A DNA stretch of 32,000 bases from Thermococcus kodakarensis KOD1 (GTDB taxonomy: Archaea > Methanobacteriota_B > Thermococci > Thermococcales > Thermococcaceae): contig NC_006624.1 in assembly GCF_000009965.1 (NCBI RefSeq), forward strand, positions 1,710,001 to 1,742,000, given 5' to 3'. Shown here in pieces: positions 1 to 17,255 of this stretch. Positions within the stretch are counted from its first letter, which is position 1, and every line of letters begins with the position of its first letter. The notes beneath the pieces are model-generated. The model searched no databases. It was not told where the DNA came from and saw only the letters and a list, made by a program, of their open reading frames with translations. Made by a program: the position numbers and the translations under genes.

Positions 1-48
1 AAGCTCTTTGACTTCATCTTCAACCTTCTTTTTGCGGGCCATCATCAT
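1..48 (-). CDS. N-terminal end of an unidentified gene running off the left edge (partial)
   Basis: Minus-strand ATGATGATG (48..40) preceded by a GGGTGA-like SD. Reads MMMARKKKVEDEVKEL... and leaves the window. Too short to identify. Confidence 0.3.
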   Translation of the reverse strand, partial: MMMARKKKVEDEVKEL

Positions 49-218
49 CACCCAATACCTTTGATGTGGGTAAAACATGGGGAGGTTATATACTTTATGT
101 CCCTCAGGGACTTGGCAATGAAACTTTTAAGAATTTCGTCCGATTCTAGAATCAAACTGTAAAAGACCCATATTTTACAATAGCAGCCAGGAAAGAATAT
201 TAAACAGAAAATAAGGGA

Positions 219-1250: not shown

Positions 1251-1323
1251 GCAAGGGGTTAAAAACGTTGGGACGTGGTTAAGTGAACTTTAATGAACAT
1301 AAGAATACCACTAGGCACAAGTT

Positions 1324-1345
1324 TTCCAGTGGAAACGGAACTCTT
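1324..1345 (+). promoter_or_regulatory. mini-ORB / partial ORB (TTCCAGTGGAAACGGAACTCTT), no G-string
   Basis: Exact TTCCAGTGGAAAC core. The extension GGAAACGGAACTCT parallels GGAAACAGAACTCT of the ORB at 1649..1674. Confidence 0.7.
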
Positions 1346-1366
1346 TTTCGATACTCATCGAAAAGA

Positions 1367-1393
1367 CCCCCCAGAGTTTTATTTCCACTGGAA
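1367..1393 (-). promoter_or_regulatory. Full ORB element (minus-strand reading TTCCAGTGGAAATAAAACTCTGGGGGG)
   Basis: Plus strand reads CCCCCCAGAGTTTTATTTCCACTGGAA. The reverse complement gives the ORB core plus a G-string, as in the Orc1/Cdc6 origin recognition boxes defined in Sulfolobus and Pyrococcus. Confidence 0.8.
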
Positions 1394-1648
1394 CCAACTT
1401 TCGGAGAATGGATGGATTTGATGGCTTTAAACAACAGAAAGGGTATTTTTAAAGCGTCTGTGTCAATGTAAATATGATTTTGTTCATTTAAACTTTGTTC
1501 TTTCAGTATTTTTTCAATCTTACATCTTAATACCCGCTAATTATTGAACATTGTTTATGGAAAATTATAAATACATGATGGGAAAGAAAAAGCGGGAGTG
1601 TTTGCACCAAAATTCGATATTGAAAATGGGTGTAGCAACGAAAGCTGC
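1394..1648. other. AT-rich putative duplex unwinding element between the inverted ORBs
   Basis: Strongly AT-rich, for example AAATATGATTTTGTTCATTTAAACTTTGTTCTTTCAGTATTTTTTCAATCTTACATCTTAATA. It is bracketed by ORBs pointing away from each other. Confidence 0.65.
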
Positions 1649-1674
1649 CTCCACTGGAAACAGAACTCTGGGGG
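1649..1674 (+). promoter_or_regulatory. Full ORB element (CTCCACTGGAAACAGAACTCTGGGGG)
   Basis: ORB core (quasi-palindromic variant TCCACTGGA), conserved AACTCT spacer and G-string. Inverted relative to the ORB at 1367..1393. Confidence 0.8.
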
Positions 1675-1785
1675 ACTACAAAATTGTTTATTTTTTGAGA
1701 TTGCGAAAACAAAGATGTTTTCTAAAAATGATCCCTTTTGTCCATCATTGTTCGTGTTTTCATGTATATCCCTGTTCATTCCTCT

Positions 1786-2014
1786 TTCAGTGGAAATAGG
1801 CACACCTACCGATGTTTTGTTTGTCTAATGCAAACTTGTATGTGCATCCCTGATCATTGCTTGCTTCGCGTTTCCTCTGGAGAGGTCTTTTTGCACAGGT
1901 TAGAACTGGAACTTCGAGTGGAATTCTTTGACAGCTCCATGTTCAACAATCCATATAAACCAGCGGCCTACACATAGGTATGCCTTCCAGTGTATCCGCT
2001 GGTTCCTGTGGAGT
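1786..2014. repeat. Scattered degenerate mini-ORB-like motifs between ORB2 and cdc6
   Basis: TTCAGTGGAAA (1786..1796), TTCCTCTGGAGA (1872..1883), TTCGAGTGGAAT (1913..1924), TTCCAGTGTA (1985..1994), TTCCTGTGGAG (2003..2013). Each is 1-3 mismatches from the core. Confidence 0.4.
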
Positions 2015-2142
2015 CCCTCGTGAATGTTCAATATTTCCCCATATTTCCTATCAAAATGTTGAAATAAGGATATGTACTGGTCATTTCGATGGAAAGCGCA
2101 CTATCATATTGACGGAACGACTTCCATCGAGTATGATTTCAA

Positions 2143-3405
2143 GTGGAGAGTGGGACGATGGACGATGACTACCTCAGTTCAATATTCGAGAAGTACCTCC
2201 ATGCCAGGAAGATATTCAAGAACAAAGAAGTGCTTAGGCACAGCTATACCCCAAAGGAGCTTCCACACAGGCACAAGCAGATAGACGACCTTGCCCACAT
2301 TCTTGTTCCAGTTCTCCGCGGTGAAACTCCGTCTAATGTTTTTGTGTATGGGAAAACTGGAACTGGAAAGACCGTAACCGTCAAGTTCGTTACTGAGGAA
2401 CTGAAGAAGATCTCCCAGAAGTACAATATTCCTGTTGAGGTTATCTATATCAACTGTGAAATAATTGATACTCACTACCGCGTTCTCGCAAGGATTGTAA
2501 ACCACTTCAAAGAGGAGAGCGGGATCGAGGTTCCCCTCGTCGGCTGGCCCACCGATGAGGTCTATGCAAAGCTCAAGGAAGTCATTGATGCCAAGGAGCG
2601 CTTCGTTATAATAGTCCTCGACGAGATAGACAAGCTCATCAAGAAGAGTGGAGACGACATCCTGTATTCTCTGACGAGGATCAACAGCGAGCTTAGCAAG
2701 GCAAAGGTAAGCATCATTGGGATTTCCAACGACCTCAAGTTCAAAGAGTACCTGGATGCGCGCGTTCTCTCCAGCCTGAGCGAAGAGGAGGTCGTTTTCC
2801 CGCCATACGACGCGAACCAGCTCAGGGACATCCTCATGCAGCGTGCCAAGGAGGCTTTTTATGAGGGTGTGCTGGACGATGCGGTTGTGCCGCTGTGTGC
2901 CGCCCTCGCAGCCAGGGAGCACGGAGACGCGAGGAGAGCCCTCGACCTTCTGAGGGTTGCGGGTGAAATAGCGGAGCGCGAGGGGGCGAGCAAAGTTACA
3001 GAGAGGCACGTCTGGAAAGCCCAGGAGAAGATTGAACAGGACACAATGGAAGAGGTTATAAAAACCCTTCCTCTCCACTCAAAGGTTCTCCTCTACGCGA
3101 TAGTCATGCTCGATGAAAACGGCGAGCTCCCTGCCAACACCGGTGAGGTTTACTCAATTTACAAGATGCTCTGCGACAGCCTCGACGTTGAGCCCCTCAC
3201 CCAGAGGCGCGTGAGTGATCTGATCAACGAACTTGACATGCTCGGCATTATCAACGCCAAGGTCGTCAGTAAGGGCCGTTATGGGAGAACAAAGGAGATA
3301 AGGCTCAACGTGACTCCGTATATGGTGAAGAACATATACCGCCACGATGAGCAGGTTCGCCCGCTCCTCACCCTGAGCCTCTCTCGCCAGAGGAGGTTGT
3401 TCTGA
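2143..3405 (+). CDS. cdc6: Orc1/Cdc6 replication initiator (AAA+ plus C-terminal winged helix)
   Basis: Walker A GKTGTGKT, Walker B VIIVLDEID, sensor region GDARRALDLLR, and N-terminus ...RKIFKNKEVLRHSYTPKELPHRH typical of Thermococcales Cdc6. The ORF-track start is GTG 2143; ATG at 2158 (MDDDYL...) is an equally plausible start. Confidence 0.95.
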   Translation: MESGTMDDDYLSSIFEKYLHARKIFKNKEVLRHSYTPKELPHRHKQIDDLAHILVPVLRGETPSNVFVYGKTGTGKTVTVKFVTEELKKISQKYNIPVEVIYINCEIIDTHYRVLARIVNHFKEESGIEVPLVGWPTDEVYAKLKEVIDAKERFVIIVLDEIDKLIKKSGDDILYSLTRINSELSKAKVSIIGISNDLKFKEYLDARVLSSLSEEEVVFPPYDANQLRDILMQRAKEAFYEGVLDDAVVPLCAALAAREHGDARRALDLLRVAGEIAEREGASKVTERHVWKAQEKIEQDTMEEVIKTLPLHSKVLLYAIVMLDENGELPANTGEVYSIYKMLCDSLDVEPLTQRRVSDLINELDMLGIINAKVVSKGRYGRTKEIRLNVTPYMVKNIYRHDEQVRPLLTLSLSRQRRLF

Positions 3406-5612
3406 TGCTGGTGGAGGACCTCCTTAAGAACAACTACCTTATCACGCCGTCCGCGTATTATCTGCTCTCGGACCACTACAAGAAGGCCTTTACCCTGGCC
3501 GAGCTGATAAAGTTCGCCAAAAACCGGGGGACGTTCGTTGTAGACTCCAACCTTGCCAGAGAGTTCCTGGCGGAAAAGGGCATAATTTCCAGTGGAAATG
3601 GTGCCCTTGACGGTTCAGTACTCTCTGGGATCAGCGTTTCTGAATCTCCTGTGAAACCTAACGGGGAGGCAGTTCTGGAATCTGAATCTGATGAATCTGG
3701 GGCCATTGAATCTTCTCTCCAGGAAGGAGTTGAGGATGGGGTCGAATCTATAGCTGAGCCAAGTGCGGCGTCTGTTGAAGATGTTGTCGTCGCTGGGGAA
3801 AGTTCTCTAGCATCTGAAGGCTCTTCACTGGAGGATGAAATCAACACTGAACCAGAGTTATCATCCTCTATGGATGATGGTGCTGAAGTTGTTCAGTCTT
3901 CTGAGGGGGATGAGACCTCTATTTCCACTGGAAATGCCTTGGGATCTGTGGACTATGGTGGCTCTGATTCTGAATCAGAAGCTTTAGAAGAGGCCTCCTC
4001 TGGGGGGGAGAGTTTCATTTCCACTGGAACTCCTGAAGATGAGGCCCTCCTAGAAGAGTCCCCTGAAGGAGAATTTCCCGATGAAAACGGCTTCTCTGAT
4101 GAGTCCCTTCCAGTGGAAAACGGGAGTGAGAATGGGTATGGGGACTCTGAAGAGTACTACGAGAACGGCGACAACGGTGTCAAGCCGAAGATAGTCTACG
4201 GTGACTACGGTGTCCCAATAGCCTACGTTGCAGATGAAACTCCGGAGGAAGAGAAAGCCTATTCGACGTATTCCGACCTAGTGATAGCCCCAAAGGAGGG
4301 CTTCCACTACAGGGCAAAGGAGATTCCCGACGAGTGGGAGCTGGCCTTTGACGTCAAGAACGTGAAGTTCGAGGTTCCCAAGGTCAAGAACGCCCAGAGC
4401 AAGGAGGGTGAGGTCATAATCCAGGCATATTCCAGCTACTTCAAGTCCAGGCTTAAGAAGATGCGGAGGATCTTCCGCGAGAACCCTGAAATCGGCACGA
4501 TAGTGGATATCGCCAAGCTGAGCTACGTCCGAGAAGATGATGTCACGATAATCGGGCTCGTCAATGAAAAGCGCGAGACAAGAAAGGGCTACCTCTTTGA
4601 GATCGAGGACGCCACGGGAAGGATCAAGGTCTTCATAGGCTCGGACAAGGAGGGTGCAAATGAAGCCTACAGCACGATAATGCCCGATTCTGTTGTTGCT
4701 TTCAGGGGCACCCCCGGGAAGGGAATATTCTTCGCAAACAGGGTGTTCCTCCCGGACGTTCCGAAGTTCAAGAGGTCAAAACCACCGCTTGAGGAGAAGG
4801 TCTACGCCATCCTGCTCAGCGACATCCACGTCGGTAGCAACAAGTTCTGCGAGGAAGCTTTTATCAAGTTCCTTGAGTGGCTCAACGGCGAGGTTAACAG
4901 CAGAACCGAGGAAGAGCTGGTGAGCAGAATCAAGTACATCATTATTGGCGGCGACGTCGTTGACGGCGTCGGCATCTATCCGGGCCAGTATAACGAGCTG
5001 GCGATTCCAGATATCTTCGACCAGTATGAGGCCCTTGCAAACCTGCTGAAACAGGTTCCGGACCACATAACGATGTTCATCGGGCCTGGAAACCACGACG
5101 CGGCCAGAACGGCCCTTCCGCAGCCGGGCTTCTACGAAGAGTATGCAAAGCCGCTCTACAAGCTCAAGAACGCTGTGATAATCAGCAATCCTGCCGTAAT
5201 ACGGCTTCACGGCAGGGACTTCCTCGTAGCCCACGGCAGGGGAATAGAGGACGTCGTTGATTTTGTCCCCAACAGGAGCCACCACAGGCCCGCTGAGGCA
5301 ATGGTAGAGCTTCTTAAGCTCAGACACATAGCTCCGACCTTCGGGAACAAGGTTCCGATAGCTCCCGACCCCGAGGATACGCTCGTCATCGAGAGCGTTC
5401 CAGACCTATTCCAGGCAGGCCACGTCCACGTCATGCAGTACAAGACGTACAACGGCGTCTTCGTCATAAACACCGGTACGTGGCAGGCGCAGACTGAATT
5501 CCAGAAGATGGTGAACATAATCCCGACTCCGGCGAGGGTTCCGATAATCGACGTTGAAACCGCCCGCCTGAGGGCTGTGGTTAGGTTTGACCAGTTTTGC
5601 GAGGGGGTTTGA
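3405..5612 (+). CDS. polB: DNA polymerase D (Pol II) small subunit DP1, with a long acidic insertion
   Basis: The ATG shares its A with the cdc6 TGA (TGATG). C-terminal calcineurin-like phosphoesterase motifs are LSDIHVGS, GGDVVDG, GNHD and GHVH, with an OB-fold region before them. Residues ~61-258 are a Ser/Glu/Asp/Gly-rich low-complexity insertion. Confidence 0.95.
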   Translation: MLVEDLLKNNYLITPSAYYLLSDHYKKAFTLAELIKFAKNRGTFVVDSNLAREFLAEKGIISSGNGALDGSVLSGISVSESPVKPNGEAVLESESDESGAIESSLQEGVEDGVESIAEPSAASVEDVVVAGESSLASEGSSLEDEINTEPELSSSMDDGAEVVQSSEGDETSISTGNALGSVDYGGSDSESEALEEASSGGESFISTGTPEDEALLEESPEGEFPDENGFSDESLPVENGSENGYGDSEEYYENGDNGVKPKIVYGDYGVPIAYVADETPEEEKAYSTYSDLVIAPKEGFHYRAKEIPDEWELAFDVKNVKFEVPKVKNAQSKEGEVIIQAYSSYFKSRLKKMRRIFRENPEIGTIVDIAKLSYVREDDVTIIGLVNEKRETRKGYLFEIEDATGRIKVFIGSDKEGANEAYSTIMPDSVVAFRGTPGKGIFFANRVFLPDVPKFKRSKPPLEEKVYAILLSDIHVGSNKFCEEAFIKFLEWLNGEVNSRTEEELVSRIKYIIIGGDVVDGVGIYPGQYNELAIPDIFDQYEALANLLKQVPDHITMFIGPGNHDAARTALPQPGFYEEYAKPLYKLKNAVIISNPAVIRLHGRDFLVAHGRGIEDVVDFVPNRSHHRPAEAMVELLKLRHIAPTFGNKVPIAPDPEDTLVIESVPDLFQAGHVHVMQYKTYNGVFVINTGTWQAQTEFQKMVNIIPTPARVPIIDVETARLRAVVRFDQFCEGV
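3587..4121. repeat. Four ORB/mini-ORB-like motifs inside the DP1 coding sequence
   Basis: TTCCAGTGGAAA 3587..3598; TTCCACTGGAAA 3923..3934; AGAGTTTCATTTCCACTGGAAC 4009..4030 (21/22 identical to oriC ORB 1373..1394); TTCCAGTGGAAAAC 4108..4121. The motif matches are seen directly; their function is inferred. Confidence 0.6.
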
Positions 5613-8600
5613 ATGAGCGAGGAGATTTACTCGCCTGAAATGAAGGCTTACTTCGAGTCACTCCAGCGCGAGATAGACAGGGCCTATGCGATAGCGAGGA
5701 AGGCCCGCGCACAGGGTAAGGATCCGAGCTTTGACGTTGAGGTTCCGCAGGCTACTGATATGGCTGGCCGTGTTGAGAGCCTCGTCGGACCGCCCGGCGT
5801 GGCCGAGAGGATTAGAGAGCTAGTCAAAGAGTATGGCAAGGAGATAGCTGCCCTTAAAGTTGTTGATGAGATAATCGAGGGCAAGTTCGGTGACCTTGGG
5901 AGCAAGGAGAAGTACGCTGAGCAGGCGGTGAGGACTGCCCTGGCAATTCTAACGGAAGGTATAGTTTCCGCTCCACTGGAAGGTATCGCTGACGTTAAAA
6001 TAAAGCGCAACGAGTGGGCCGACGGGAGCGAGTACTTAGCTCTCTACTATGCCGGCCCGATCAGGAGTTCCGGTGGAACGGCTCAGGCTTTGAGCGTTCT
6101 CGTTGGTGATTACGTGAGGAGAAAGCTCGGTCTCGACCGCTTCAAGCCGAGCGATGAACACATTGAGAGGATGGTCGAAGAGGTTGACCTCTACCACAGG
6201 GCTGTTACGAGGTTGCAGTACCACCCGGAGGCAGACGAAGTAAGGCTCGCCATGAGGAACATCCCGATCGAGATAACCGGTGAGGAGACCGATAAAGTTG
6301 AAGTCTCTCACAGAAACGTCCCCGGTGTTGAGACGAACCACCTCCGCGGCGGTGCCATTCTCGTTCTCGCTGAAGGTGTCCTGCAGAAGGCAAAGAAGCT
6401 CGTGAAGTACATAGACAAGATGGGGATCGAGGGCTGGGACTGGATAAAGGAGTTCGTGGAAGCCAAGGAGAAGGGCAAGAGTAGTGAAGAGAATAAAGAC
6501 GAATCGAAGGCCGAGGACACTGGAACTGAGAGCGTCGCTGAAAAGAAGGAGAATGTCGAGAAGGGTTTCTATTACGAGCTCTACGAGAAGTTCAGGGCCA
6601 ATATTGCCCCCAACAAGAAGTACACCAAGGAGATAATCGGTGGAAGACCCCTCTTCGCCGAGCCTTCGACCAACGGCGGCTTCAGGCTCAGGTACGGCCG
6701 CTCAAGGGTCTCCGGCTTTGCGACCTGGAGCGTCAATCCAGCAACAATGCTCATTCTGGACGAGTTCATAGCAATTGGGACCCAGATGAAGACGGAGAGG
6801 CCAGGTAAGGGTTGTATCGTGACTCCAGCGACTACGGTGGAGGGTCCGATCGTCAGGCTCAAGAACGGGAGCGTGGTAAGGGTAGATGACTATGAAACGG
6901 CTCTAAAGGTCAGGAACGAGGTTGACGAGATCCTATACGTTGGCGATGCGCTCGTAAACTTCGGCGACTTCGTCGAGAACAACCAGACGCTTCTCCCGGC
7001 AAACTACGTCGAGGAGTGGTGGGTTCAGGAGCTAGTACAGGCCATCAAAGACCTCTACGAGGTTGAGCTTCAGCCCTTTGCTGAGAACGACAGGGAAGCC
7101 GTAGAGGAAGCGGCTGAGTACCTTGAGGTAGACCCCGATTTCCTGTGGAACCTCTTGAAGGATCCGCTCAGGGTTAAACCAGATGTGGAGACGGCCATTC
7201 ACCTTTCAACGGTTCTCGACATACCGTTCCACCCGTACTACACCCTCTACTGGAACACCCTTCAGCCGGAAGAGGTCGAGGAACTCCAGAAGGCCCTTCT
7301 GGGTGCTCAGATAGAGTGGGCTGAGTTCAGAAAGAACCGCTTCGCGAAGAAGGTCGTCCTTGAGAACGATAAAAATATCAAACGCTACCTTGAGCTCCTC
7401 GGCCTGCCCCACAGGCTTGAAAGGGTTGAGAAGAAGAGGAAGGTCATCGTCGTTGAATATCCCTGGAGTGCGGCCCTTCTGACGCCGCTCGGCAACCTTG
7501 AGTGGGAGTTCAAGGCAAAGCCCTTCTACACGGTCATAGACATCATCAACGAGAACAACAGGATAAAGCTCCGCGATAGGGGAATAAGCTGGATCGGCGC
7601 GAGGATGGGAAGGCCAGAGAAGGCCAAGGAAAGAAAGATGAAGCCGCCGGTCCAGGTTCTCTTCCCGATAGGCCTTGCCGGCGGCCAGAGCAGGGACATC
7701 AAGAAAGCCGCCGAGGAAGGAAAAACGGCCAGGGTTGAGATAGCCTTCTTCAAGTGTCCCAAGTGCGGCCACGTCGGGCCGGAGCACCTCTGCCCCGTCT
7801 GTGGAACCAGGAAGGAGCTCCTCTGGCACTGCCCGAAGTGTGGAGCGGATTATCCTGAGAGCGATGCAAAGGACTTTAACTACCGCTGTCCGAAGTGCGA
7901 CGTTGAGCTCAAGCCCTACGCGGAGCGGGAGATAAAGCCCGCCGACCTGTTAAGGCAGGCCATGGACAACGTCAAGGTCTACGGCATAGACAGGCTCAAG
8001 GGCGTTAAGGGTATGACCTCCGGCTACAAGATGGCCGAGCCGCTGGAGAAGGGTCTTCTCCGTGTTAAAAACGACGTCTACGTCTTTAAGGATGGTACAA
8101 TCCGCTTCGACGCGACCGACGCTCCAATAACCCACTTCAAACCTAAGGAGATAGGGACGAGCGTCGAGAAGCTGAGGGAGCTCGGCTACACTCACGACTT
8201 CGAGGGGAAGCCCCTCGAGAGGGACGACCAGATACTCGAGCTGAAGGTCCAGGACGTTATTCTGCCCTACGAGGCAGGGAGGTACCTCCTCAAGGTGGCG
8301 CGCTTCATCGATGACCTCCTTGAGAAGTTCTACGGATTACCCAGGTTCTACAATGCCGAGAAGATGGAAGACCTTGTGGGTCACCTCGTTATAGGTCTCG
8401 CTCCACACACCTCGGCTGGAATCATTGGGAGGATAATCGGCTTTTCAGACGTTCTCGTTGGCTACGCACACCCGTATTACCATGCGGCGAAGAGGAGGAA
8501 CTGCTTCCCAGGTGACACGAGGATACTCGTCCAGATCAACGGCCTTCCTCAGAGGATAACCCTCAGGGAACTCTACGACCTCTTTGAAGACGAGCGGTAC

Positions 8601-11009
8601 GAAAACATGGCCTACGTGAGAAAGAAGCCGAAGGCGGACGTCAAAGTTTATTCATTTGACCCAGAGAGCGGAAAGGTCGTCCTTACTGACATAGAGGACG
8701 TCATAAAGGCTCCATCGACGGATCATTTGATAAGGTTCGAGCTTGAGCTCGGCAGGAGCTTTGAGACGACTGTTGACCATCCGGTGCTTGTCTACGAAAA
8801 CGGCAAGTTCGTTGAGAAGAGGGCCTTTGAGGTTAGGGAAGGAGATAGAATCCTCGTGCCTAATTTGAAGCTTCCTGAAAAGAACATTGACTACCTTGAT
8901 CTGCTAAAAGAGTTCTCCAGAGAGGAGTTTGCTCATCTTCACGATAGGATAATGGTTCGTGGAATAGCAGAGTGGCTCCGCTCAGTTGAGGCTGATGTAA
9001 AAGAAGACTACCTGCGCAGAGACTCCATACCTTTGAGCGTCCTTCTAAGGGTTCTCACGGAGAAAGAGATATCCATTGAGGAAGTACCTTCCTGCTGGCT
9101 TGGATTTAAGCGCGATAAAGTAAGAATCAAGCGGTTCGTACCTCTCAAACCTCTCCTCCGCGTCGTTGGGTACTACCTTGCCGAGGGCTATGCAAGAGAA
9201 AGCAAGAGTGTCTATCAGCTGAGCTTCTCGATGGCAGAGAAGGAGGTTAGGGAAGACCTCAAGAGGGCACTCAGAGAAGCTTTCGGGGACGGTTTTGGTA
9301 TCTACGAGAGGGGAGGGAAAGTTACAGTTGGCTCGCGTATTCTCTACCTGCTGTTTACGGAAGTTCTGAAGGCTGGAAAGAACGCATACAGCAAGCGCGT
9401 TCCGTCTCTTGTTTTCACACTGCCACGTGAAGCCGTTGCAGAGATGCTTAAGGCATACTTCGAGGGAGATGGAAGTGCCCTTAAGTCCGTGCCTCGTGTG
9501 GTAGCGTATAGTGTTAATAAGGCCCTCCTTGAGGACATTGAGACACTGTTGCTTGCCAAGTTCGGCATTCGTGGCTATTACACCTTTGACAATAATGCCA
9601 ATAGAGGCAACGCTCGCGGGAGACTGTATCACGTTGAACGCGGAACTGAGGCTCCAGTTTCAAAAGTCTACGCCCTTAACATTGCAGGTGAGCACTACCA
9701 CAGGTTCTTCAATAGCATTGGCTTTGTGAGTGAACGCAAGAACTCAATCTATGAGCTTCATGCTGAGAAATCTCCAGCTCAGGATAGATATTCCTCACAG
9801 AATGGCTGGCTGGTGAAAGTCAGGCGCATTGAATACATCACACCAAAAGATGATTTCGTGTTCTCTTTAAACGCTAAAAAGTATCATAATGTGATAATTA
9901 ACGAAAGTATTGTAACACACCAATGCGACGGCGACGAAGACGCTGTAATGCTCCTCCTCGATGCCCTCCTCAACTTCAGCAAATACTATCTGCCCGAAAA
10001 GCGCGGCGGCAAGATGGACGCTCCTCTGGTCGTTACCACCCGTCTTGACCCGAGGGAGGTAGACAGCGAGGTTCACAACATGGATGTGGTCAGGTACTAT
10101 CCTCTCGAGTTCTACAAGGCCACCTACGAGCTCAAGTCTCCAAAGGAAGTGAAGGTCATAGAGCGCGTTGAGGACCGCCTGGGCAAGCCCGAGATGTACG
10201 AGGGGATAAAGTTCACCCACGATACGGACGACATTGGTCTCGGCCCGAAGATGAGCCTGTACAAACAGCTCGGCGACATGGAGGAGAAGGTCGCCAGACA
10301 GCTCGCTCTGGCAGAGAGGATAAGGGCCGTGGATGAGCACCACGTTGCTGAAACGATAATCAACTCTCACCTCGTTCCGGACCTTAGAGGCAACCTTAGG
10401 AGCTTCACGAGGCAGGAGTTCCGCTGCGTCAAGTGCAACACGAAGTACAGAAGGCCACCTTTGACCGGCAAGTGCCCGAAGTGCGGCGGAAAGATAGTCC
10501 TCACCGTCAGCAAGGGTGCAATAGAAAAGTACCTGCCCACGGCCAAGATGCTCGTTACTAAGTACAGAGTAAAGGACTACACGAGGCAGAGGATATGCAT
10601 AACCGAGAAGGACATAAAGACGCTCTTCGAGAACGTCTTTCCTGAGAAACAGAGGACCCTCATGGGCTTCTCGGCGGACATCTGCGAGAAGATGGTCAAG
10701 GAGAGGACGGGTCATTCCAACGGAAAGAACGGCTACCTCGACGAGTTCAACGGGAAGAACGGAAAGGCCAGCAAAAAGTCTGGGAGTTTAGCCTCAAAGC
10801 TCTCTGGAAAAGGCAAAGAACCCTCGAAAAAGAAGGAGAGTGCAAAACCCAAACGCTCCGAGAAGGTCAAGAACCTCACCAGCTTTGAAGCGGCCGCTAA
10901 GAATGAGCAGGCAAGAGGAACGGCAGGGAACGCTAAGAAGGCTGAGAGTGAGAAGCCAAAGAGAAAGAAGCGGAAAGGCATAAGCCTCGACGAGTTCTTC
11001 GGCTCGTAA
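5613..11009 (+). CDS. polC: DNA polymerase D (Pol II) large subunit DP2, intein-containing precursor (1798 aa; 1324 aa after splicing)
   Basis: Starts immediately after the DP1 stop. Cys clusters are CPKCGHVGPEHLCPVCG, CPKCGADY..CPKCD and CVKCNTKYRRPPLTGKCPKCGG. The conserved DP2 catalytic region is split by an intein. Lys-rich C-terminal tail ends in ISLDEFF. Confidence 0.95.
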   Translation: MSEEIYSPEMKAYFESLQREIDRAYAIARKARAQGKDPSFDVEVPQATDMAGRVESLVGPPGVAERIRELVKEYGKEIAALKVVDEIIEGKFGDLGSKEKYAEQAVRTALAILTEGIVSAPLEGIADVKIKRNEWADGSEYLALYYAGPIRSSGGTAQALSVLVGDYVRRKLGLDRFKPSDEHIERMVEEVDLYHRAVTRLQYHPEADEVRLAMRNIPIEITGEETDKVEVSHRNVPGVETNHLRGGAILVLAEGVLQKAKKLVKYIDKMGIEGWDWIKEFVEAKEKGKSSEENKDESKAEDTGTESVAEKKENVEKGFYYELYEKFRANIAPNKKYTKEIIGGRPLFAEPSTNGGFRLRYGRSRVSGFATWSVNPATMLILDEFIAIGTQMKTERPGKGCIVTPATTVEGPIVRLKNGSVVRVDDYETALKVRNEVDEILYVGDALVNFGDFVENNQTLLPANYVEEWWVQELVQAIKDLYEVELQPFAENDREAVEEAAEYLEVDPDFLWNLLKDPLRVKPDVETAIHLSTVLDIPFHPYYTLYWNTLQPEEVEELQKALLGAQIEWAEFRKNRFAKKVVLENDKNIKRYLELLGLPHRLERVEKKRKVIVVEYPWSAALLTPLGNLEWEFKAKPFYTVIDIINENNRIKLRDRGISWIGARMGRPEKAKERKMKPPVQVLFPIGLAGGQSRDIKKAAEEGKTARVEIAFFKCPKCGHVGPEHLCPVCGTRKELLWHCPKCGADYPESDAKDFNYRCPKCDVELKPYAEREIKPADLLRQAMDNVKVYGIDRLKGVKGMTSGYKMAEPLEKGLLRVKNDVYVFKDGTIRFDATDAPITHFKPKEIGTSVEKLRELGYTHDFEGKPLERDDQILELKVQDVILPYEAGRYLLKVARFIDDLLEKFYGLPRFYNAEKMEDLVGHLVIGLAPHTSAGIIGRIIGFSDVLVGYAHPYYHAAKRRNCFPGDTRILVQINGLPQRITLRELYDLFEDERYENMAYVRKKPKADVKVYSFDPESGKVVLTDIEDVIKAPSTDHLIRFELELGRSFETTVDHPVLVYENGKFVEKRAFEVREGDRILVPNLKLPEKNIDYLDLLKEFSREEFAHLHDRIMVRGIAEWLRSVEADVKEDYLRRDSIPLSVLLRVLTEKEISIEEVPSCWLGFKRDKVRIKRFVPLKPLLRVVGYYLAEGYARESKSVYQLSFSMAEKEVREDLKRALREAFGDGFGIYERGGKVTVGSRILYLLFTEVLKAGKNAYSKRVPSLVFTLPREAVAEMLKAYFEGDGSALKSVPRVVAYSVNKALLEDIETLLLAKFGIRGYYTFDNNANRGNARGRLYHVERGTEAPVSKVYALNIAGEHYHRFFNSIGFVSERKNSIYELHAEKSPAQDRYSSQNGWLVKVRRIEYITPKDDFVFSLNAKKYHNVIINESIVTHQCDGDEDAVMLLLDALLNFSKYYLPEKRGGKMDAPLVVTTRLDPREVDSEVHNMDVVRYYPLEFYKATYELKSPKEVKVIERVEDRLGKPEMYEGIKFTHDTDDIGLGPKMSLYKQLGDMEEKVARQLALAERIRAVDEHHVAETIINSHLVPDLRGNLRSFTRQEFRCVKCNTKYRRPPLTGKCPKCGGKIVLTVSKGAIEKYLPTAKMLVTKYRVKDYTRQRICITEKDIKTLFENVFPEKQRTLMGFSADICEKMVKERTGHSNGKNGYLDEFNGKNGKASKKSGSLASKLSGKGKEPSKKKESAKPKRSEKVKNLTSFEAAAKNEQARGTAGNAKKAESEKPKRKKRKGISLDEFFGS
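8502..9923 (+). mobile_element. Intein (474 codons) with LAGLIDADG homing-endonuclease domain in DP2
   Basis: In-frame. The N-terminal splicing block CFPGDTRILV follows extein ...AAKRRN. Block B is TVDHPVLV. Two LAGLIDADG motifs are present (VVGYYLAEGYA, LKAYFEGDGSA). The C-terminal block is VFSLNAKKYHNVIINESIVTHQ, followed by the +1 Cys of CDGDEDA. The flanks closely resemble the P. abyssi PolII mini-intein as I recall it. Confidence 0.9.
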
Positions 11010-11084
11010 CATTCTCCTCTTGGTTTCCTTTTCGTGTGTTCGATCTCCGTTAAGCATATATATGATAAAATCGTCTATCCATTG

Positions 11085-11771
11085 ATGCTCAATCAGTTCA
11101 AGCTCCTTCCCAGCGTCGCCTACCTGCGCGTTCAGAAGCAGGCCTTCATAGGCTATTCCATGCCCCTGGCTGGATGGATAGGGGAGTATCTGATAAACTA
11201 CCAGAAGCTTCCGAGGCCGAACTTCTTGGGCAGGGCAATGGCCAAGCTGGGCTTTCACCTAGCTGGGGAGGATAGGGACGACCGCTTTATCACCCAGTTC
11301 TTCACTAAGGGGAGCGTTTCAATAAGCGCTAGCTGGGACGTCGAGAGGGAGGCTCTTTTCCTCCAGCTCATCCCTCTCCGTTCGAAGCTCTCCAGGGGAC
11401 TGACCATCAGGACGGAGCACATAGAGTTCTACGACCAGTACGTTGTCTCGATTGAACCGGCCGGAAAGCTCCCACCCGGGGTAAAGGGAATAGGGATAAA
11501 CGCCCTCATCCTTGAGGACTTCTACCCTGTCGAGACGCCATACTGGGGCATGCTCCACGAGGACTGGGAGAGCGAGCTCAACCTGGTTGTGATGCGCGAT
11601 GAGGTCTATGAGAGGCTCCACCGCGAGGAGTACCGCTGTCCCGTCTGCTTCTCGCCGCTCCACGAGGAGAAGGGCATCTTGAAGTGCTCCAAATGCGGCT
11701 TTACCTACGCCCCGGAGAACGACTTCGAGAGGGTCATGGAAGAGTTCTCGGTGGAGGAGTTTGCGTTTTGA
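11085..11771 (+). CDS. Hypothetical protein with C-terminal zinc ribbon
   Basis: The ORF-track start is GTG 11034; the first ATG is 11085 (MLNQFKL...), and ATATATAT-like TATA sequence lies at ~11056. C-terminal CPVCFSPLHEEKGILKCSKCGF is a CxxC...CxxC ribbon. No family recognised. Confidence 0.6.
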   Translation: MLNQFKLLPSVAYLRVQKQAFIGYSMPLAGWIGEYLINYQKLPRPNFLGRAMAKLGFHLAGEDRDDRFITQFFTKGSVSISASWDVEREALFLQLIPLRSKLSRGLTIRTEHIEFYDQYVVSIEPAGKLPPGVKGIGINALILEDFYPVETPYWGMLHEDWESELNLVVMRDEVYERLHREEYRCPVCFSPLHEEKGILKCSKCGFTYAPENDFERVMEEFSVEEFAF

Positions 11772-11829
11772 GGTCCCTAATAAAAAGTCAGATTGGGAAA
11801 AGGGTTAAATAGCTTATTTTGGGGTTGTT

Positions 11830-12801
11830 ATGTGGGTGGTTAACGTGCCGGATTATTTTTTGGTGTCTTTATCAAATCGAGAAAACTTAGAGCTCTGTGT
11901 TAAGTACAATTTAGCGGGGTTTACGAACAGTATAAATGGTCTCTGGACTTTCTTTGACATAAGTGTTGGGGATTATATATCATTTCTCTACGGGGCCAGG
12001 GTTCGAAATCTGTACCGTGTCGTCAGGAAGGTAGCTTATAAAAACGCAAGGGATCTTCCTCCCTGGCCTCCAATAACTTTCAGATCACAAAAGACTTATT
12101 ACTTCCCATTCCGGCTGTTTTTGAAACCAGAACGAGAATTTAACGAGCCTATGGTTCGGCAAGAGTTCTCTTATGTTGCCGAAAACTTGCTATTAAGAGG
12201 AGGTTATCGTAAAACTCATTTTCAAGCCGATACTGTAACATTTTACAAGGTTTCTGAGATGGGCAATCCTTTTGCTGGAGAGCCGGAGTACTTGGAGCTT
12301 AATGCAGAAACATTTGAGCCAAAAATTGTGTTTGACAGGAAAAACCAGAGAATTCCTGAGAAGTTCTACTTTAGGGAGCTTATACTCCAGTCGCTGGTGA
12401 GAAAGAAACTTGGAGTCACGGTTCTCCGTGATGTTCTGGAGATATTTGAAGTAGATAATTCTCCAGAGGAATTTGAAGTACTTGGTGAAAAAGCTCTTCC
12501 AGAAGGATACGTGGACATTTTCATAAAACTGAAGCATCCTTCTGCCCTTAATAGGTACATTCTTGCGGAAGTTAAGACTGGAAAAGCCCAGAAAAAGGAT
12601 GTGGAGCAACTAAGAAAGTATCTAAGTGAATACGGGAACGAGGCGGTGGGTGGACTGTTGATAGCCAAGGACTTCTCAAGATCGGCCTTTGAAGATGATC
12701 GGATAATTCCTGTTAGATATTACTTCAAGGAATTAGATCCCTTTGGGGAGTATAGTTATGATGAGCTTTTGAGTATGTTGAAGCTGGAGATAGTAGTATA
12801 A
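11830..12801 (+). CDS. Predicted fusion of a PUA/EVE-like N-terminal domain and a NucS/RecB-type PD-(D/E)xK nuclease C-terminal domain
   Basis: 323-aa ORF in an AT-rich islet. The C-terminal region [11 protein letters not shown]...[45 protein letters not shown] aligns by eye with the NucS/EndoMS catalytic domain pattern GIVDVL...VVLELKRRRA..HAVRQLKSYV....V.GILVAPS (D...E-x-K). The N-terminal [23 protein letters not shown]...[18 protein letters not shown] resembles EVE/PUA-like beta-barrels; this part is tentative. Confidence 0.6.
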
Positions 12802-12939
12802 AGAAGCGGTTGTTTATGTTTGTGTCCTCTGGTATTACATACTCTTTAGCTGATGAAATGTACCCGGATACTGACAACTTCTAGGTCTTGGGTTTTGATC
12901 AAGGAATCCCTGAGGAGGAAGAGTTTGGTGGCCTTCCTT

Positions 12940-13400
12940 TAAGAGGGGAAAACAATTAGGGTTTTTCCTTGCTCTTTTAACGCCCTTTGGTCGTTATACT
13001 ACAAGTAAATCTATTGAAAACCGCCAATTGGGGGGGGGGGGAGAATCATGAAAACTTGGCAATTTAGAAAGGATATTCACTCTTTGATGAAACTTTGCCC
13101 TGCAAAGTTTCTTTGGTCAGGCTTTTTCCAAAAGCTTGCTGGCGAAAAGTTCCACCAAAGGCACTTTCCATAAAATGCTGGGTGTTAATCGTGCACTCTT
13201 CTCCTCCCGATCTCTAAGATGGGTTTAACTGCCGAGGTAGTTTTATGAAGTTTGCTTTTTTCTGGCGTCCTTTGGATGCTTTGTTGGCGACAAACACTTT
13301 ATAAGAGCAAATGAGGAGTAAATTCCTCCCAGGTTTGTATTTTCAGAAAAGCATACCCTTTCTGCCATCCCTCGAGGAATTTGAACGGGGTTGAAAGCTA
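12940..13400. repeat. Dispersed ~1.7-unit copy of the tRNA-linked repeat family
   Basis: TCTTTGATGAAACTTTGCCC (13081..13100) is 20/20 identical to 16879..16898. The degenerate hairpin AACGCCCTTTGGTCGTT+ATACT (12979..13000), TGGGTTTAACT (13220..) and ...AAAAGCATAC..CTGCCATCC..TTGAACG..TGAAAGC (13348..13399) are colinear with units of the 16081..17177 array. Confidence 0.75.
13030..13041 (+). repeat. Homopolymeric G12 tract inside the repeat copy
   Basis: ATTGGGGGGGGGGGGAGAATCA. The homologous position in the unit at ~16830 has GTTGAGCATTGAGAATCA instead. Confidence 0.9.
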
Positions 13401-13545
13401 TGATTGCACAAGCAAGGGCTGATATGGTGCAGGGCCTGAGTTTGAACCTTGTAAATGAAATTCTAGTATAAGTATAGTTGGTGTGAGAATAATTTGAAGA
13501 AAACCATAGATAAAGTGGCGGATATAAGGAGAAATGCACCTGGCA

Positions 13546-14124
13546 TTATTTCTTTTCGGAGTATGGGTTAAATACCAGAGTCCTGCCTTCGTAAGGGGAA
13601 AAACTCACATATAACTTTCCGTTTTGAAGTTTTACTTGCGGATCAAATGGATAGCAACCGCCTCCAGTTCTACAGCCTTTAATTTCATGATAATACCAAT
13701 CCACCTTTCCACTCCCTAAATCAAATGCCCAGACATAGCGGTTTTGCAGATGGTAAACTATGTCAATATCCTTGTAAAGTCCTTCAATCCCAACTATTCC
13801 CCTCTCACCAACCACCGCCACATAAAGGGTTTCATTGTGAATTAAACACTGACCTTCACCACTGAAGTCTCTGCTTAGATTAACTTGAATGCTCTTAATG
13901 ACGTCCTCATTTTTCATCAACAGTATAAGGCCATTCTTTACTTCAACAGGACAATCCGAGTTTCCATTTAGTGAACTGTCAAGTACTTCGTTAGGCAATT
14001 TGCCCTCTTGGATCGGCGTGGTGTATTTATAATCGTAATATGTAAGCCTCAGATAGCTAACTTTCAGAGGTACAACTGGCAAAAGAAAAAATAATAGCAA
14101 CAGAGCCTTCACTTTTCTTCTCAT
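13546..14124 (-). CDS. Hypothetical exported/membrane-anchored protein (signal peptide, beta-rich, 4 Cys)
   Basis: MRRKVKALLLLFFLLPVVPLKVS is a signal/anchor sequence. AT-rich codon usage matches the islet. The ORF-track start is TTG 14130; ATG 14124 is preferred. No family recognised. Confidence 0.6.
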   Translation of the reverse strand: MRRKVKALLLLFFLLPVVPLKVSYLRLTYYDYKYTTPIQEGKLPNEVLDSSLNGNSDCPVEVKNGLILLMKNEDVIKSIQVNLSRDFSGEGQCLIHNETLYVAVVGERGIVGIEGLYKDIDIVYHLQNRYVWAFDLGSGKVDWYYHEIKGCRTGGGCYPFDPQVKLQNGKLYVSFSPYEGRTLVFNPYSEKK

Positions 14125-14258
14125 TTCCAAATCCCTCCAATATATTCCACGACCTCATTATCACTCTTTAGCTTTTGTAGTTCTGCGTAATTAGCGTCTC
14201 TTACGATGATTTTAAATCTTATATGAGCAACTTTTGTATTCTCAAACTTTTCTAACAT
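14121..14258 (-). CDS. Possible 45-aa small protein translationally coupled to the exported protein
   Basis: Read by eye: MLEKFENTKVAHIRFKIIVRDANYAELQKLKSDNEVVEYIGGIWK. Its TGA overlaps the downstream ATG (ATGA). Below the ORF-track length cutoff. Confidence 0.3.
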   Translation of the reverse strand: MLEKFENTKVAHIRFKIIVRDANYAELQKLKSDNEVVEYIGGIWK

Positions 14259-14277
14259 TTGGTCTTTTGTAGTTTTG

Positions 14278-14367
14278 CAGGTTGTGATTAGACATTCATC
14301 TCAAAGCAAACTCTTTAAAAATCAGTCAAAAACTTTCCGCCAGCGCTTTCGTCAGAAAGGGCTGTTA
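14278..14367. repeat. Truncated terminal part of the repeat unit abutting the tRNA-His 3' end
   Basis: AACTTTCCGCCAGCGCTTTCGTCAGAAAGGGCTGTT (14331..14366) matches 17141..17176 at 35/36 positions. The upstream segments TTGTGATT...CTCAAAG..CTCTTTAAAAA are also shared. Confidence 0.8.
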
Positions 14368-14445
14368 TGGGGCCGGGGCCGGGATTTGAACCCGGGCTAG
14401 GGGATCCACAGTCCCCTGTGCTAACCAGGCTACACCACCCCGGCC
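14368..14445 (-). tRNA. tRNA-His (anticodon GUG) with encoded G-1 and CCA
   Basis: The reverse complement folds as a cloverleaf: G-1, acceptor GCCGGGG/CCCCGGC, D-arm GTGTAGCCTGGTTAGCAC, anticodon stem-loop GGGGA-CTGTGGA-TCCCC, T-arm CCGGG-TTCAAAT-CCCGG, discriminator C, CCA. Confidence 0.93.
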
Positions 14446-15977: not shown

Positions 15978-16080
15978 TTTAACCACCACCGTTAAAAACT
16001 CCGGAGGGCTTTTAAGTCCAGCGATGATGACGCCCAAGCCCTCCTGACGGGTGATGAGAGCGGTCACCACTGAGCGGATG

Positions 16081-17177
16081 GAAACTTTGCCCCTCAAGTT
16101 TTTTCAAAACCTGGTCAAGATTTACCCTTCTTTTTGAACTTGCCTGTTAAGAGGTGTATGCCTGCTCAGAAGGCAACTTTGTGCGGATTTGCTCTCAAAT
16201 CTCTCGTTAATTGTGATTTCACCTTTCTTTTTAGCGCTCGAAGAGCGCTATACTGTGGGGAAATCCCATGCGATTGGCAAATTGATAAGTAAACCTCTCA
16301 TAAAATTTAGCCTGTTTCAAAAGCATACTATCCTTCCGCCATCCGTTAAGGACGCTTGAACGCTAGTGAAAGCGGCGCTGAAACTTTTAGAAAAAGCTTC
16401 ACCAAAGTTCGTGGTTCCTATTTAACGGGTCGTTTTGGGCGGATTTTCCTTTTGAACGCTGTCTTGAGTCGTGAATTCTATTTTTAATTCGCTTGTTTTT
16501 CTTGAGTTTGCTTTTTAATTGACGCCCGTAGGGCGTCAAGGCGAGAAAACTCCTTTTCATCAGGCTGAAACTTAGGGGAATTCACTGATGTCTGGCTTGT
16601 GTATCTTGAAAATCCTCAGTAAACAGCAATTTTAGAAAAGAACCACGAACCTTGATCAAACTTCGCAAGGAAGCTTTTGGAAAAAGCTTCACCAAAAGCT
16701 CGAATGTCTTCTTGATGTTGGCTTGATGCGATTAGATTCTCTTGGTAGAGGGGCAGAGTAATGCGGGTTTTCTTATTTTTAACGCCTTTCGGGCGTTATA
16801 CTGTGAGTAAACCCCCTTGAAACCGCTAGTTGAGCATTGAGAATCACTGGAAAACAGGAAGCTCAAAAGGACATTCCATCTTTGATGAAACTTTGCCCTT
16901 CAAGCTTTTGGAAAAAGCTTGAGCAAAAGTTGCTCTTCTTCTCGAACTTTGCTTATTGAGGAGTGTATGCTCCACTATAAAGCGAGTTTGAGTGGGTTTA
17001 ACTCCAAAATCCCCCAGCTGATTGTGATTTTGGCTTTCTTTTTAGTGCCCTTCGGGCACTATACGGTGATAAAATCCTTTTGAATCTAGCAACTCGGTAA
17101 GTAAACCCACTCAAAGGCTAGCTCTTTAAAAACGCATACTAACTTTCCGCCAGCGCTTTCGTAAGAAAGGGCTGTTG
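16081..17177. repeat. Array of four tandem degenerate ~230-300 bp repeat units ending at the 3' end of tRNA-Pro
   Basis: Unit anchors (G/C)AAACTT lie at 16081, 16380, 16657 and 16887. Units contain a palindrome AAGCTTTTGGAAAAAGCTT (exact at 16671..16689 and 16902..16920, degenerate in the other two units) and a T-run plus GC hairpin plus TATAC(T/G)GTG. Hairpins are at 16232..16250, 16521..16537, 16781..16797 and 17043..17061. There is no ORF of 60 aa or more in 16098..17085. Confidence 0.85.

Positions 17178-17255
<78 letters not shown>

Follow-up and report, generated by a model that had tools for sequence, protein, structure and literature searches.

Modification-dependent restriction enzymes join a reader domain to a nuclease domain (PMC6765204, PMC7897488, PMC12191111). 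A protein of this layout is encoded in the stretch of the Thermococcus kodakarensis KOD1 genome analyzed here, which comprises 32,000 nucleotides of contig NC_006624.1 (positions 1,710,001 to 1,742,000) and is called the window below. The gene was present with its exact coordinates in the list of open reading frames (ORFs), with 323 amino acids counted from ATG. The protein is identical to BAD86094.1, WP_011250856.1 and UniProt Q5JES8 of T. kodakarensis KOD1, annotated as 'hypothetical protein, conserved' or DUF91. This ORF is TK1905, a name derived by accession arithmetic. No mention of TK1905 was found in any paper of the literature searched. We tentatively regard TK1905 as a self-sparing, modification-dependent (Type IV-like) endonuclease, the likeliest role of which would be the restriction of foreign-modified DNA.

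The members of the MspJI family (MspJI, AspBHI and LpnPI; Type IIM/IV) share with TK1905 an N-terminal base-flipping reader of the PUA superfamily and a C-terminal PD-(D/E)xK nuclease. The structure of MspJI (4f0p) was among the Foldseek matches of both the full TK1905 model and its C-terminal half. However, the MspJI reader is SRA-like and reads 5-methylcytosine and 5-hydroxymethylcytosine, whereas the TK1905 reader is EVE/YTH-like and unmatched by named sequence families. The nuclease of TK1905 is nearest to NucS and not to that of MspJI, a protein of about 450 amino acids. To our knowledge, members of the MspJI family have neither an ancestral coupled methyltransferase nor a small partner of their own.

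The EVE-HNH enzymes TspA15I and VcaM4I also carry an EVE-type reader fused to a nuclease. Both were shown to prefer DNA with modified cytosine; they are solitary and rarely found near methyltransferases (PMC6765204, PMC7897488). They use HNH catalysis and contain an EVE domain recognizable by sequence, in contrast to the PD-(D/E)xK domain of TK1905 and its EVE-like domain, which was recognized by fold and a weak profile-profile match. The mismatch endonuclease NucS/EndoMS (T. kodakarensis TK1898, 5gke; P. abyssi, 2vld) is about 20 % identical to TK1905 over about 115 residues, and the D-E-K, Q and Y motifs align. Both proteins share the logic of an N-terminal domain that handles a flipped base, followed by a RecB-like cutter, but TK1905 has an EVE-like domain where NucS has its own N-terminal domain. 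Moreover, NucS is a vertically inherited housekeeping protein, whereas the TK1905 family is sporadic and horizontally transferred.

The best structural matches of the N-terminal domain were stand-alone archaeal EVE proteins of UPF0310 (PH1033, 1wmm; MJECL36, 2p5d; the A. fulgidus protein AAB91306) with template modelling (TM) scores of 0.66-0.70. They share with TK1905 the beta-alpha-beta-alpha-beta4 order and the strand motif FPxR(L/I)xLKP. However, they are single-domain proteins with a strong Pfam EVE match, whereas the TK1905 domain is unmatched and contains a unique hyperconserved segment.

Fusions of EVE, DCD or YTH domains to PD(D/E)XK nucleases were predicted to be modification-dependent restriction enzymes; they occur in archaea and hyperthermophilic bacteria and are sometimes linked to methyltransferases (Bell et al. 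2020, PMC7641849). This purely computational class, an EVE-like specificity module with a PD(D/E)XK nuclease, is of the same predicted type as TK1905. Searched by accession and organism name, the supplementary text of that study, one file of which was incomplete, yielded neither TK1905 nor its relatives (PMC7641849). The fusion of a PUA-superfamily reader to a nuclease is thus of a known kind, predicted as a class by computation, and what is new is the sequence family of the reader, which is joined to a NucS-type cutter.

Reader and nuclease domains of TK1905

A first-pass annotation made from the nucleotide sequence had proposed that a PUA/EVE-like domain is fused to a NucS-type nuclease domain in this protein. 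Structure prediction and homologue analysis bore out both halves of this proposal. The full-length AlphaFold2 model, built from a 32-sequence alignment, had a predicted local distance difference test score (pLDDT) of 91.4 and a predicted TM score of 0.88. The N-terminal domain of the model exhibited the secondary-structure order of PUA-like/EVE domains. When the full model was compared with the Protein Data Bank using Foldseek, MJECL36 (2p5d, E = 1.4e-5, TM score 0.66), PH1033 (1wmm, TM score 0.70), many YTH domains, which are readers of N6-methyladenosine, and Atu2648 (1zce) were matched, each with a probability of 1.00. The structures 2p5d and 1wmm are closely related to the A. fulgidus protein of the EVE set of Bell et al., which itself reached 6.7e-27 on Pfam EVE.

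By sequence the domain was far less conspicuous. Pfam and NCBIfam scans gave no sequence-family match for the N-terminal domain of TK1905, and the Pfam models EVE, YTH, DCD, ASCH and SRA yielded zero matches at E <= 5 in 50 diverse family members. The DCD group, to which motif spacing and the predictions of Bell et al. had pointed, thus had no Pfam match among these 50 proteins. An hhalign comparison of the family N-terminal domain with three UPF0310 EVE proteins aligned 117 collinear columns with E = 2.7e-4 and a probability of 42 %. It paired YFLVS with YWLCI, GDYISFL with GDKLLIY, and FPFRLxLKP with FPLRIKLKP. With a single EVE sequence just 27 columns were aligned (probability 7.8 %). Apparently, the TK1905 reader represents a new sequence family which is EVE-like by its predicted fold and by a weak profile-profile match.

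Among 217 full-length homologues the mean pairwise identity was 72 % for the reader, 50 % for the C-terminal domain and 41 % for the linker. Judged from this alignment, the reader is the best-conserved part of the protein, and its higher conservation relative to the nuclease would fit a fixed chemical ligand. Residues G30, W79 and R95 are invariant, and W39, F52, F92, R123, G125, D134, H130 and F131 are conserved in at least 215 of the 217 homologues. The conserved aromatic and basic residues W39, W79, F52, F92, R95 and H130 are candidates for lining a binding pocket. The linker forms a short beta-hairpin and two helices in both models; it shows the lowest conservation, yet E183 and Q187 are near-invariant.

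The C-terminal domain is a NucS/EndoMS-like PD-(D/E)xK nuclease with an intact D-E-K site. The AlphaFold2 model of residues 150-323 (pLDDT 93.8) matched T. kodakarensis EndoMS (5gke_A, E = 2e-4) and P. abyssi NucS (2vld) best, with E values between 2e-4 and 6e-4 and a probability of 1.00, followed by SfsA, Bax1, Hjc, MspJI and Cap4. The motifs quoted in the first-pass annotation are all present and conserved in the homologues (GYVD229IF, LAE247VK249, EQ260LRKY264 and GGLLIA in TK1905). D229, E247 and K249 are invariant in 217 of 217 homologues, as are E220, G226 and Y264, and Q260 is kept in 216. On TK1905 itself the Pfam model NucS_C scored 20.4 bits, below its 24-bit cut-off, and NA-iREase1 and PDDEXK_9 were also sub-threshold on the C-terminal part. 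NucS_C matched 45 of the 50 diverse family members, with a best E value of 1.6e-7.

Nevertheless, TK1905 is not a NucS orthologue, because the NCBIfam NucS equivalog aligned only with residues 217-287 (25 bits versus a cut-off of 216 bits) and because the N-terminal domain folds like EVE/YTH. The N-terminal half-barrel domain by which NucS dimerizes and binds mismatches was not found in TK1905. NucS also carries a C-terminal PCNA-interacting (PIP-like) motif; on inspection, no motif of the type Qxx[LIVM]xx[FY][FY] was seen in the last 30 residues of TK1905. Several family records (P0100, P0112, P0106 and others) are labelled 'endonuclease NucS' or 'RecB family endonuclease NucS'. These labels are over-annotations, since the likeness to NucS is confined to the C-terminal domain.

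The model thus appears to unite a PUA-superfamily sensor and an intact nuclease domain in one protein, which is the layout of Type IV-class enzymes. In the mechanism that we propose, the divergent EVE-like domain would flip a non-canonical base of double-stranded DNA into the conserved aromatic/basic pocket. The NucS/EndoMS-like domain, dependent on Mg2+ and on D229, E247 and K249, would then cut close by, probably in dimeric form as do NucS and MspJI. The target would be incoming DNA with a base modification that is absent from the host. The family would have originated in the R slot of a Type II-like methyltransferase operon, with a self-discrimination that does not depend on this methyltransferase, and TK1905 would be a solitary survivor which has lost both the methyltransferase and a small partner.

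Methyltransferase cassette and small partner gene

In about 15 of 78 loci, distributed over both clades of the family, a gene for an N6_N4 methyltransferase abuts or overlaps the start of the nuclease gene on the same strand. The cassette methyltransferase matched PF01555 with 83-90 bits and the PADLOC model MTase_II PDLC03376 with E = 8e-80. It is intact in three loci (L047, L054, L095) and nearly intact in two more (L045, L014), about 5 loci together. It is fragmentary in about 10 loci, where usually the 5' end is kept, and absent from the remaining ones, whereas the nuclease is kept intact. No methyltransferase or remnant of one was found beside TK1905 in the window. The ancestral form is a cassette of a Type II-like N6/N4 methyltransferase, the nuclease and a small protein of family PF27350. 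The first-pass annotation had called the nuclease stand-alone. This holds for T. kodakarensis, where the gene is solitary, but not for the ancestral state, in which it occupied the R slot of this cassette together with its small partner.

The wider methyltransferase family has at least 6735 members, and the close relatives are mostly proteins of about 535 amino acids with an extra methyltransferase-like half. The nuclease sits in a variable slot behind a short variant of the methyltransferase. The conserved, mobile module consists of the methyltransferase, the slot, a Zn-ribbon protein of 58-66 amino acids and a protein of 107-184 amino acids. It was seen in L093-L097, which are metagenomic contigs and contigs of metagenome-assembled genomes (MAGs), and also in L047 and L054. 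The slot is empty in L093, which has the long 535-amino-acid methyltransferase; it holds fragments of an NmeDI-like restriction endonuclease in L096/97 and the TK1905-family nuclease in L095. Between L095 and L096 the 107-amino-acid module protein shows 95 % identity. The small proteins of the module matched none of the Pfam, NCBIfam and PADLOC models. In its complete form the locus carries the nuclease in the R position of a Type II-like restriction-modification operon. We also considered that the nuclease splits a long methyltransferase gene in the manner of a homing element. This was rejected, because the missing 3' half was never found downstream in any locus.

Such an operon raises the question of a classical Type II restriction endonuclease with an EVE-like base-flipping recognition module. 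Its targets would be unmethylated sites, the adjacent methyltransferase would protect against cleavage, and solitary copies would be tolerated through rare or purged sites, through polyploidy and recombination, or through silence. Besides the gene arrangement and the exchange with an NmeDI-like enzyme in the slot, the co-divergence of methyltransferase and nuclease in both clades favours this explanation. On inspection, the methyltransferase also has an N-terminal Zn-finger/HTH-like (helix-turn-helix-like) extension, which is typical of delayed-expression control in restriction-modification operons. The order of decay is the reverse of that expected, however. A classical restriction enzyme cannot outlive its methyltransferase, whereas this nuclease routinely does so. 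Most loci have lost the methyltransferase or retain fragments of it, while the active site of the nuclease is invariant and its ratio of nonsynonymous to synonymous substitutions (dN/dS) is low. Furthermore, nothing but P81S distinguishes methyltransferase-linked from solitary nucleases. This lack of a systematic difference argues that discrimination between self and non-self is independent of the methyltransferase. In L047, L054 and L095 the nuclease occurs side by side with an intact methyltransferase, so that it apparently does not target the product of this enzyme.

The host itself provides a further argument. According to REBASE, T. kodakarensis has only two DNA methyltransferases, TkoI (GTGAAG) and TkoII (TTCAAG), and none is listed for TK1905 (Zatopek et al., PMC8172983). 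In the ΔTkoI/ΔTkoII strain both detected N6-methyladenine (6mA) motifs are unmethylated, with minimal effects on growth at 85 °C (PMC8172983). T. kodakarensis without detectable 6mA or N4-methylcytosine methylation is thus healthy, which argues against TK1905 being a classical restriction enzyme, and the methyltransferase that such an enzyme would require is missing from REBASE and from the window alike. Taken together with the reversed decay, this makes the Type II explanation quite improbable. Because the double deletion strain and the wild type are both viable, no protective methylation appears to be needed and 6mA sites of the host are apparently not attacked lethally. The enzyme would thus have to be intrinsically self-sparing, with either a foreign base modification or a rare lesion as its target.

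In the closest clade a gene of about 80 amino acids overlaps the stop codon of the nuclease gene by 4 nucleotides in about 19 of 31 loci. Its family, labelled PF27350 'AF_1447' in the precomputed annotation, is tiny (18 clusters) and occurs only with this nuclease. In other clades an unrelated small gene is found at the same position. In the window a remnant of the partner follows TK1905. A hidden Markov model (HMM) of 20 partner sequences matched it with E = 4e-7, but only at HMM positions 1-29. The remnant, which is missing from the ORF list, begins with ATA where ATG would be expected; a TAG interrupts the frame after about 28 codons, and the sequence beyond has decayed. The partner is also broken in L004/L025, L009/L077 and L011 and absent from many loci, while the nuclease is intact. 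Conversely, in T. onnurineus the partner ORF (95 amino acids) is open although the nuclease is frameshifted. Consequently, neither gene depends on the other.

These observations bear on the possibility that the nuclease, acting on DNA or on modified RNA such as tRNA or rRNA read by its EVE-like domain, serves as toxin in a toxin-antitoxin or abortive-infection module of two genes, in which the PF27350 partner would restrain it until an infection sets it free. The overlapping arrangement of the genes, the restriction of the partner family to this locus and the replacement of the partner by different small genes in other clades are in favour of such a module. The classical role of EVE and YTH domains is to read RNA, and according to Bell et al. 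predicted toxin-antitoxin systems include EVE domains (PMC7641849). However, an indispensable antitoxin should not be a pseudogene in the window, nor broken or absent in many loci with an intact and selected nuclease, and it should not remain open where the nuclease is frameshifted. PADLOC matched neither the nuclease nor the partner. Hence, we consider a toxin highly improbable.

Distribution, selection and a possible role in repair

The search for TK1905 homologues gave 1182 matches at 90 % clustering. Clustering at 50 % identity left only 198 clusters, many of them fragments, among 1.84 billion proteins. The family is therefore compact. When 185,579 species genomes were scanned by a pattern-based method, which provides a lower bound, at least 147 loci (about 0.08 % of the species) from about 30 phyla were confirmed. 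The archaeal hosts include Thermococci, Archaeoglobi, DHVE2, Methanothermococcus, Thermoproteota, Bathyarchaeia, Hadarchaeales and DPANN. The bacterial hosts include WOR-3, Calescamantes, Aminicenantes, Dehalococcoidia, Thermotogota, Firmicutes, Planctomycetota and Patescibacteria. In most cases the hosts are thermophiles or subsurface anaerobes. Across these hosts the homologues are 49-77 % identical to TK1905, and identities between the domains of life (66-72 %) come close to those within Thermococcus (72-84 %), which implies repeated horizontal transfer. Within Thermococcus the distribution is patchy and restricted to a minority of species. In line with the first-pass annotation, the gene does not behave as a universal housekeeping gene. 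Wherever the synonymous substitutions were unsaturated, dN/dS was 0.03-0.1, and these ratios indicate strong purifying selection on the nuclease.

The loss of the methyltransferase with retention of the nuclease, across about 30 phyla in both prokaryotic domains and at 50-77 % identity, reverses the usual order in which restriction-modification systems decay. It offers a testable case of a restriction nuclease that becomes independent of its methyltransferase or is recruited to repair. Going beyond the modification-dependent endonuclease proposed above, one may imagine that self/non-self discrimination has moved from the methyltransferase into the intrinsic, hyperconserved EVE-like reader of a restriction-type enzyme, so that the R gene became autonomous and outlives the methyltransferase. 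The ligand may then differ from simple methylation and be, for example, 7-deazaguanine, another hypermodified base of archaeal or thermophile mobile elements, or a heat-induced lesion. We regard this extended scenario as doubtful. With a ligand of this kind, the enzyme would bridge restriction and NucS-type repair.

Repair is also the subject of the main rival explanation. TK1905 would then be a lesion- or mismatch-directed nuclease, an alternative NucS, whose EVE-like pocket reads a damaged or deaminated base (uracil, hypoxanthine or an alkylated base) or, in the manner of Vsr, a methylated base beside a deamination mismatch, and whose NucS-like domain incises the DNA. Such an activity would be especially useful at high temperature, and thermophiles and subsurface anaerobes make up most of the hosts. 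Structurally, the nuclease domain is closest to the mismatch endonuclease EndoMS/NucS, and the methyltransferase, directly upstream and coupled, mirrors the dcm-vsr gene arrangement. The protein evolves slowly and has a hyperconserved reader, hosts tolerate it whether or not they have the methyltransferase, and its neighbours are housekeeping genes which include MutS in Fervidobacterium and an Ogt-type DNA_binding_1 protein in L004. Several observations speak against this explanation. The family is extremely sparse (about 0.08 % of species, a minority of Thermococcus, a pseudogene in T. onnurineus), and its rampant transfer between phyla and persistently foreign GC content are those of an accessory or selfish gene, unlike core repair genes. 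T. kodakarensis already possesses EndoMS, since 5gke is its own protein. A Vsr-like tie to the methyltransferase would make solitary copies useless, yet purifying selection acts on them. We therefore consider a repair function unlikely. The remaining probability belongs to other functions outside these readings.

The proposal of a modification-dependent restriction enzyme has to be weighed against several observations which do not favour it. The family is uncharacterized. Domains of the EVE, YTH and PUA types are frequently RNA binders. An ancestral methyltransferase in translational coupling and a slot shared with an NmeDI-like enzyme would rather be expected of a classical restriction enzyme than of a Type IV enzyme. 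The nuclease family gave zero matches in 50,697 phage records, 72,556 plasmids and IMG/VR, an absence from viruses and plasmids which would also suit a repair enzyme. The 140 proteins flanking 35 loci, searched with Pfam and PADLOC, were overwhelmingly housekeeping proteins, the top PADLOC family matched only 4 of them, and no association with defence islands was found. The protein also evolves slowly, and Bell et al. link slow evolution to housekeeping rather than defence EVE proteins (PMC7641849). Finally, the ΔTkoI/ΔTkoII strain takes up plasmid propagated in E. coli 70-100-fold better (PMC8172983). E. coli-grown plasmid, its methylation state being unstated, thus transforms this strain efficiently (PMC8172983), and common Dam/Dcm-type marks are probably not strongly restricted. 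As a whole, the 'defence nuclease' of the first-pass annotation is partly supported: the domain architecture and the patchy, horizontal spread stand, and the expected neighbourhood of defence genes was not found.

PUA-reader nucleases serve as reagents for the mapping of DNA modifications. TK1905 would add a thermostable enzyme to them, in which a reader of a new sub-family is combined with a NucS-type cutter. Among hyperthermophilic archaea, T. kodakarensis is the principal model for genetics, and an unrecognized DNA nuclease near the origin and PolD could affect transformation, genome stability and strain engineering.

Coding region, AT-rich islet and surroundings of the window

The coordinates of the features in the window are compiled in Table 1. 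The true start of TK1905 may be GTG 11845, which would give a protein of 318 amino acids. This start is favoured because the N-termini of orthologues read M[AP]DYF and because inspection of the sequence revealed a Shine-Dalgarno-like GGGTGG 5 nucleotides ahead of this codon. The intergenic region upstream of TK1905 comprises 58 nucleotides and contains the TATA-like sequence TTAAATAG. Upstream of TK1905 lie the genes for Cdc6, the PolD subunits DP1 and DP2, the latter containing an intein, and a zinc-ribbon ORF; downstream follow tRNA-His and TYW3.

Table 1. Features of the TK1905 locus in window coordinates
Feature	Position	Strand	Basis
Putative archaeal promoter, TATA-like TTAAATAG	11805..11812	+	Read from the sequence; inference only
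TK1905 coding sequence (alternative start GTG 11845)	11830..12801	+	ORF list; database identity
N-terminal EVE/YTH-like PUA-fold reader domain, residues ~6-145	11845..12264	+	AlphaFold2 model, Foldseek, hhalign
Linker/middle region, residues ~146-212	12265..12465	+	Secondary structure of the model; conservation
C-terminal NucS/EndoMS-like PD-(D/E)xK nuclease core, residues ~213-323	12466..12798	+	Pfam, NCBIfam, Foldseek, conservation
Catalytic codons D229, E247 and K249	12514-12516, 12568-12570 and 12574-12576	+	Within the nuclease core
Pseudogene remnant of the PF27350 partner	12798..12881	+	Partner HMM; comparison with intact partners
AT-rich islet between TK1904 and tRNA-His	11800..14367		Composition profile, gene GC, ORFs
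tRNA-His(GTG)	14368..14444	-	ARAGORN

TK1905 lies in an AT-rich islet with a GC content of about 41-46 % compared with about 52-55 % in the flanks. The GC content of the gene is 0.411 (41 % at third codon positions) versus 0.515 for the flank and about 52 % for the genome. The nuclease gene is likewise low in GC in T. thioreducens, T. onnurineus and two MAGs, that is in every host examined. The islet contains the nuclease gene, the partner remnant, decayed non-coding DNA with a run of 12 G and an ORF of 194 amino acids with a signal peptide.

In the first-pass annotation, the position in an AT-rich, tRNA-linked islet had been considered to fit a horizontally acquired defence gene. The AT-richness of the islet and the horizontal spread of the family were confirmed, but a recent insertion at the tRNA gene was not. 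The locus is syntenic beside tRNA-His and TYW3 in four Thermococcus species, with identities of 72-84 % for the nuclease, 80-86 % for TYW3 and 87-90 % for LplA, so that the nuclease has diverged slightly more than these flanking genes. The order CobA(-), nuclease, partner, tRNA-His(-), TYW3, LplA(-) is found in T. thioreducens, T. onnurineus and Thermococcus sp. 21S7, and T. kodakarensis differs from it on the upstream side only. In L001, L091 and L092 the tRNA-His gene follows the cassette as it does in T. kodakarensis. No att-like repeats were found around tRNA-His and no integrase at the locus. A tRNA gene lies within 2 kb in 14 of 80 family loci, compared with about 9-14 % expected. Integration targeted to the tRNA gene was therefore rejected: given the synteny in four species, the missing repeats and integrase and a tRNA linkage near chance, TK1905 is an old, patchily retained accessory gene and not a recent tRNA-targeted insertion.

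In the finished genome of T. onnurineus NA1 the orthologue (L091, positions 6001-6975) aligns to TK1905 only across three frames. This copy carries two frameshifts and is a pseudogene, and the annotated 'conserved hypothetical' protein ACJ17020.1 of 295 amino acids is its product. In T. thioreducens the region upstream of the orthologous locus (L001, positions 1-5700) contains a run of small genes on the same strand which ends near tRNA-Tyr. Among them are genes for a MarR-like protein, a PDDEXK_1 nuclease and a homologue of DpdA of the 7-deazaguanine DNA transglycosylase family. This run resembles an integrated element, possibly one that modifies its own DNA.

An AT-rich stretch of about 600 bp (12950-13545), located between the partner remnant and the next gene, lacks a convincing ORF and includes the G12 run at 13022-13033; it is probably decayed cassette or islet sequence. 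The low-GC ORF of 194 amino acids (13546-14130, minus strand) starts with an N-terminal signal- or transmembrane-like segment and had no Pfam, NCBIfam or PADLOC match. An ORF of 45 amino acids (14121-14258, minus strand) overlaps it, and the pair is situated between the cassette and the tRNA-His gene. In T. thioreducens the corresponding intergenic region measures only about 640 bp and lacks the segment of these two ORFs.

Upstream of TK1905 the presumed TK1904 (11034-11771, plus strand) is listed with 245 amino acids from GTG and has a C-terminal CxxC...CxxC zinc ribbon with weak Zn-ribbon Pfam matches. Its listed N-terminus overlaps the end of the region downstream of DP2, and its true start probably lies further downstream. 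The ORF of the PolD large subunit DP2 (5613-11009, plus strand, 1798 amino acids) contains an intein, as seen by inspection of the translation, with homing-endonuclease motifs of the LAGLIDADG type (CFPGDTRILV ... VGYYLAEGYA ... YFEGDGS ... VTHQCDGDEDA). Two further AT-rich troughs of about 41-43 % GC were observed at about 1000-2500 and 16000-17000. The latter lies between an LplA-like gene and tRNA-Pro (17178-17255). The former is situated just upstream of a Cdc6/Orc1-like ORF (2143-3405) and is probably the replication origin.

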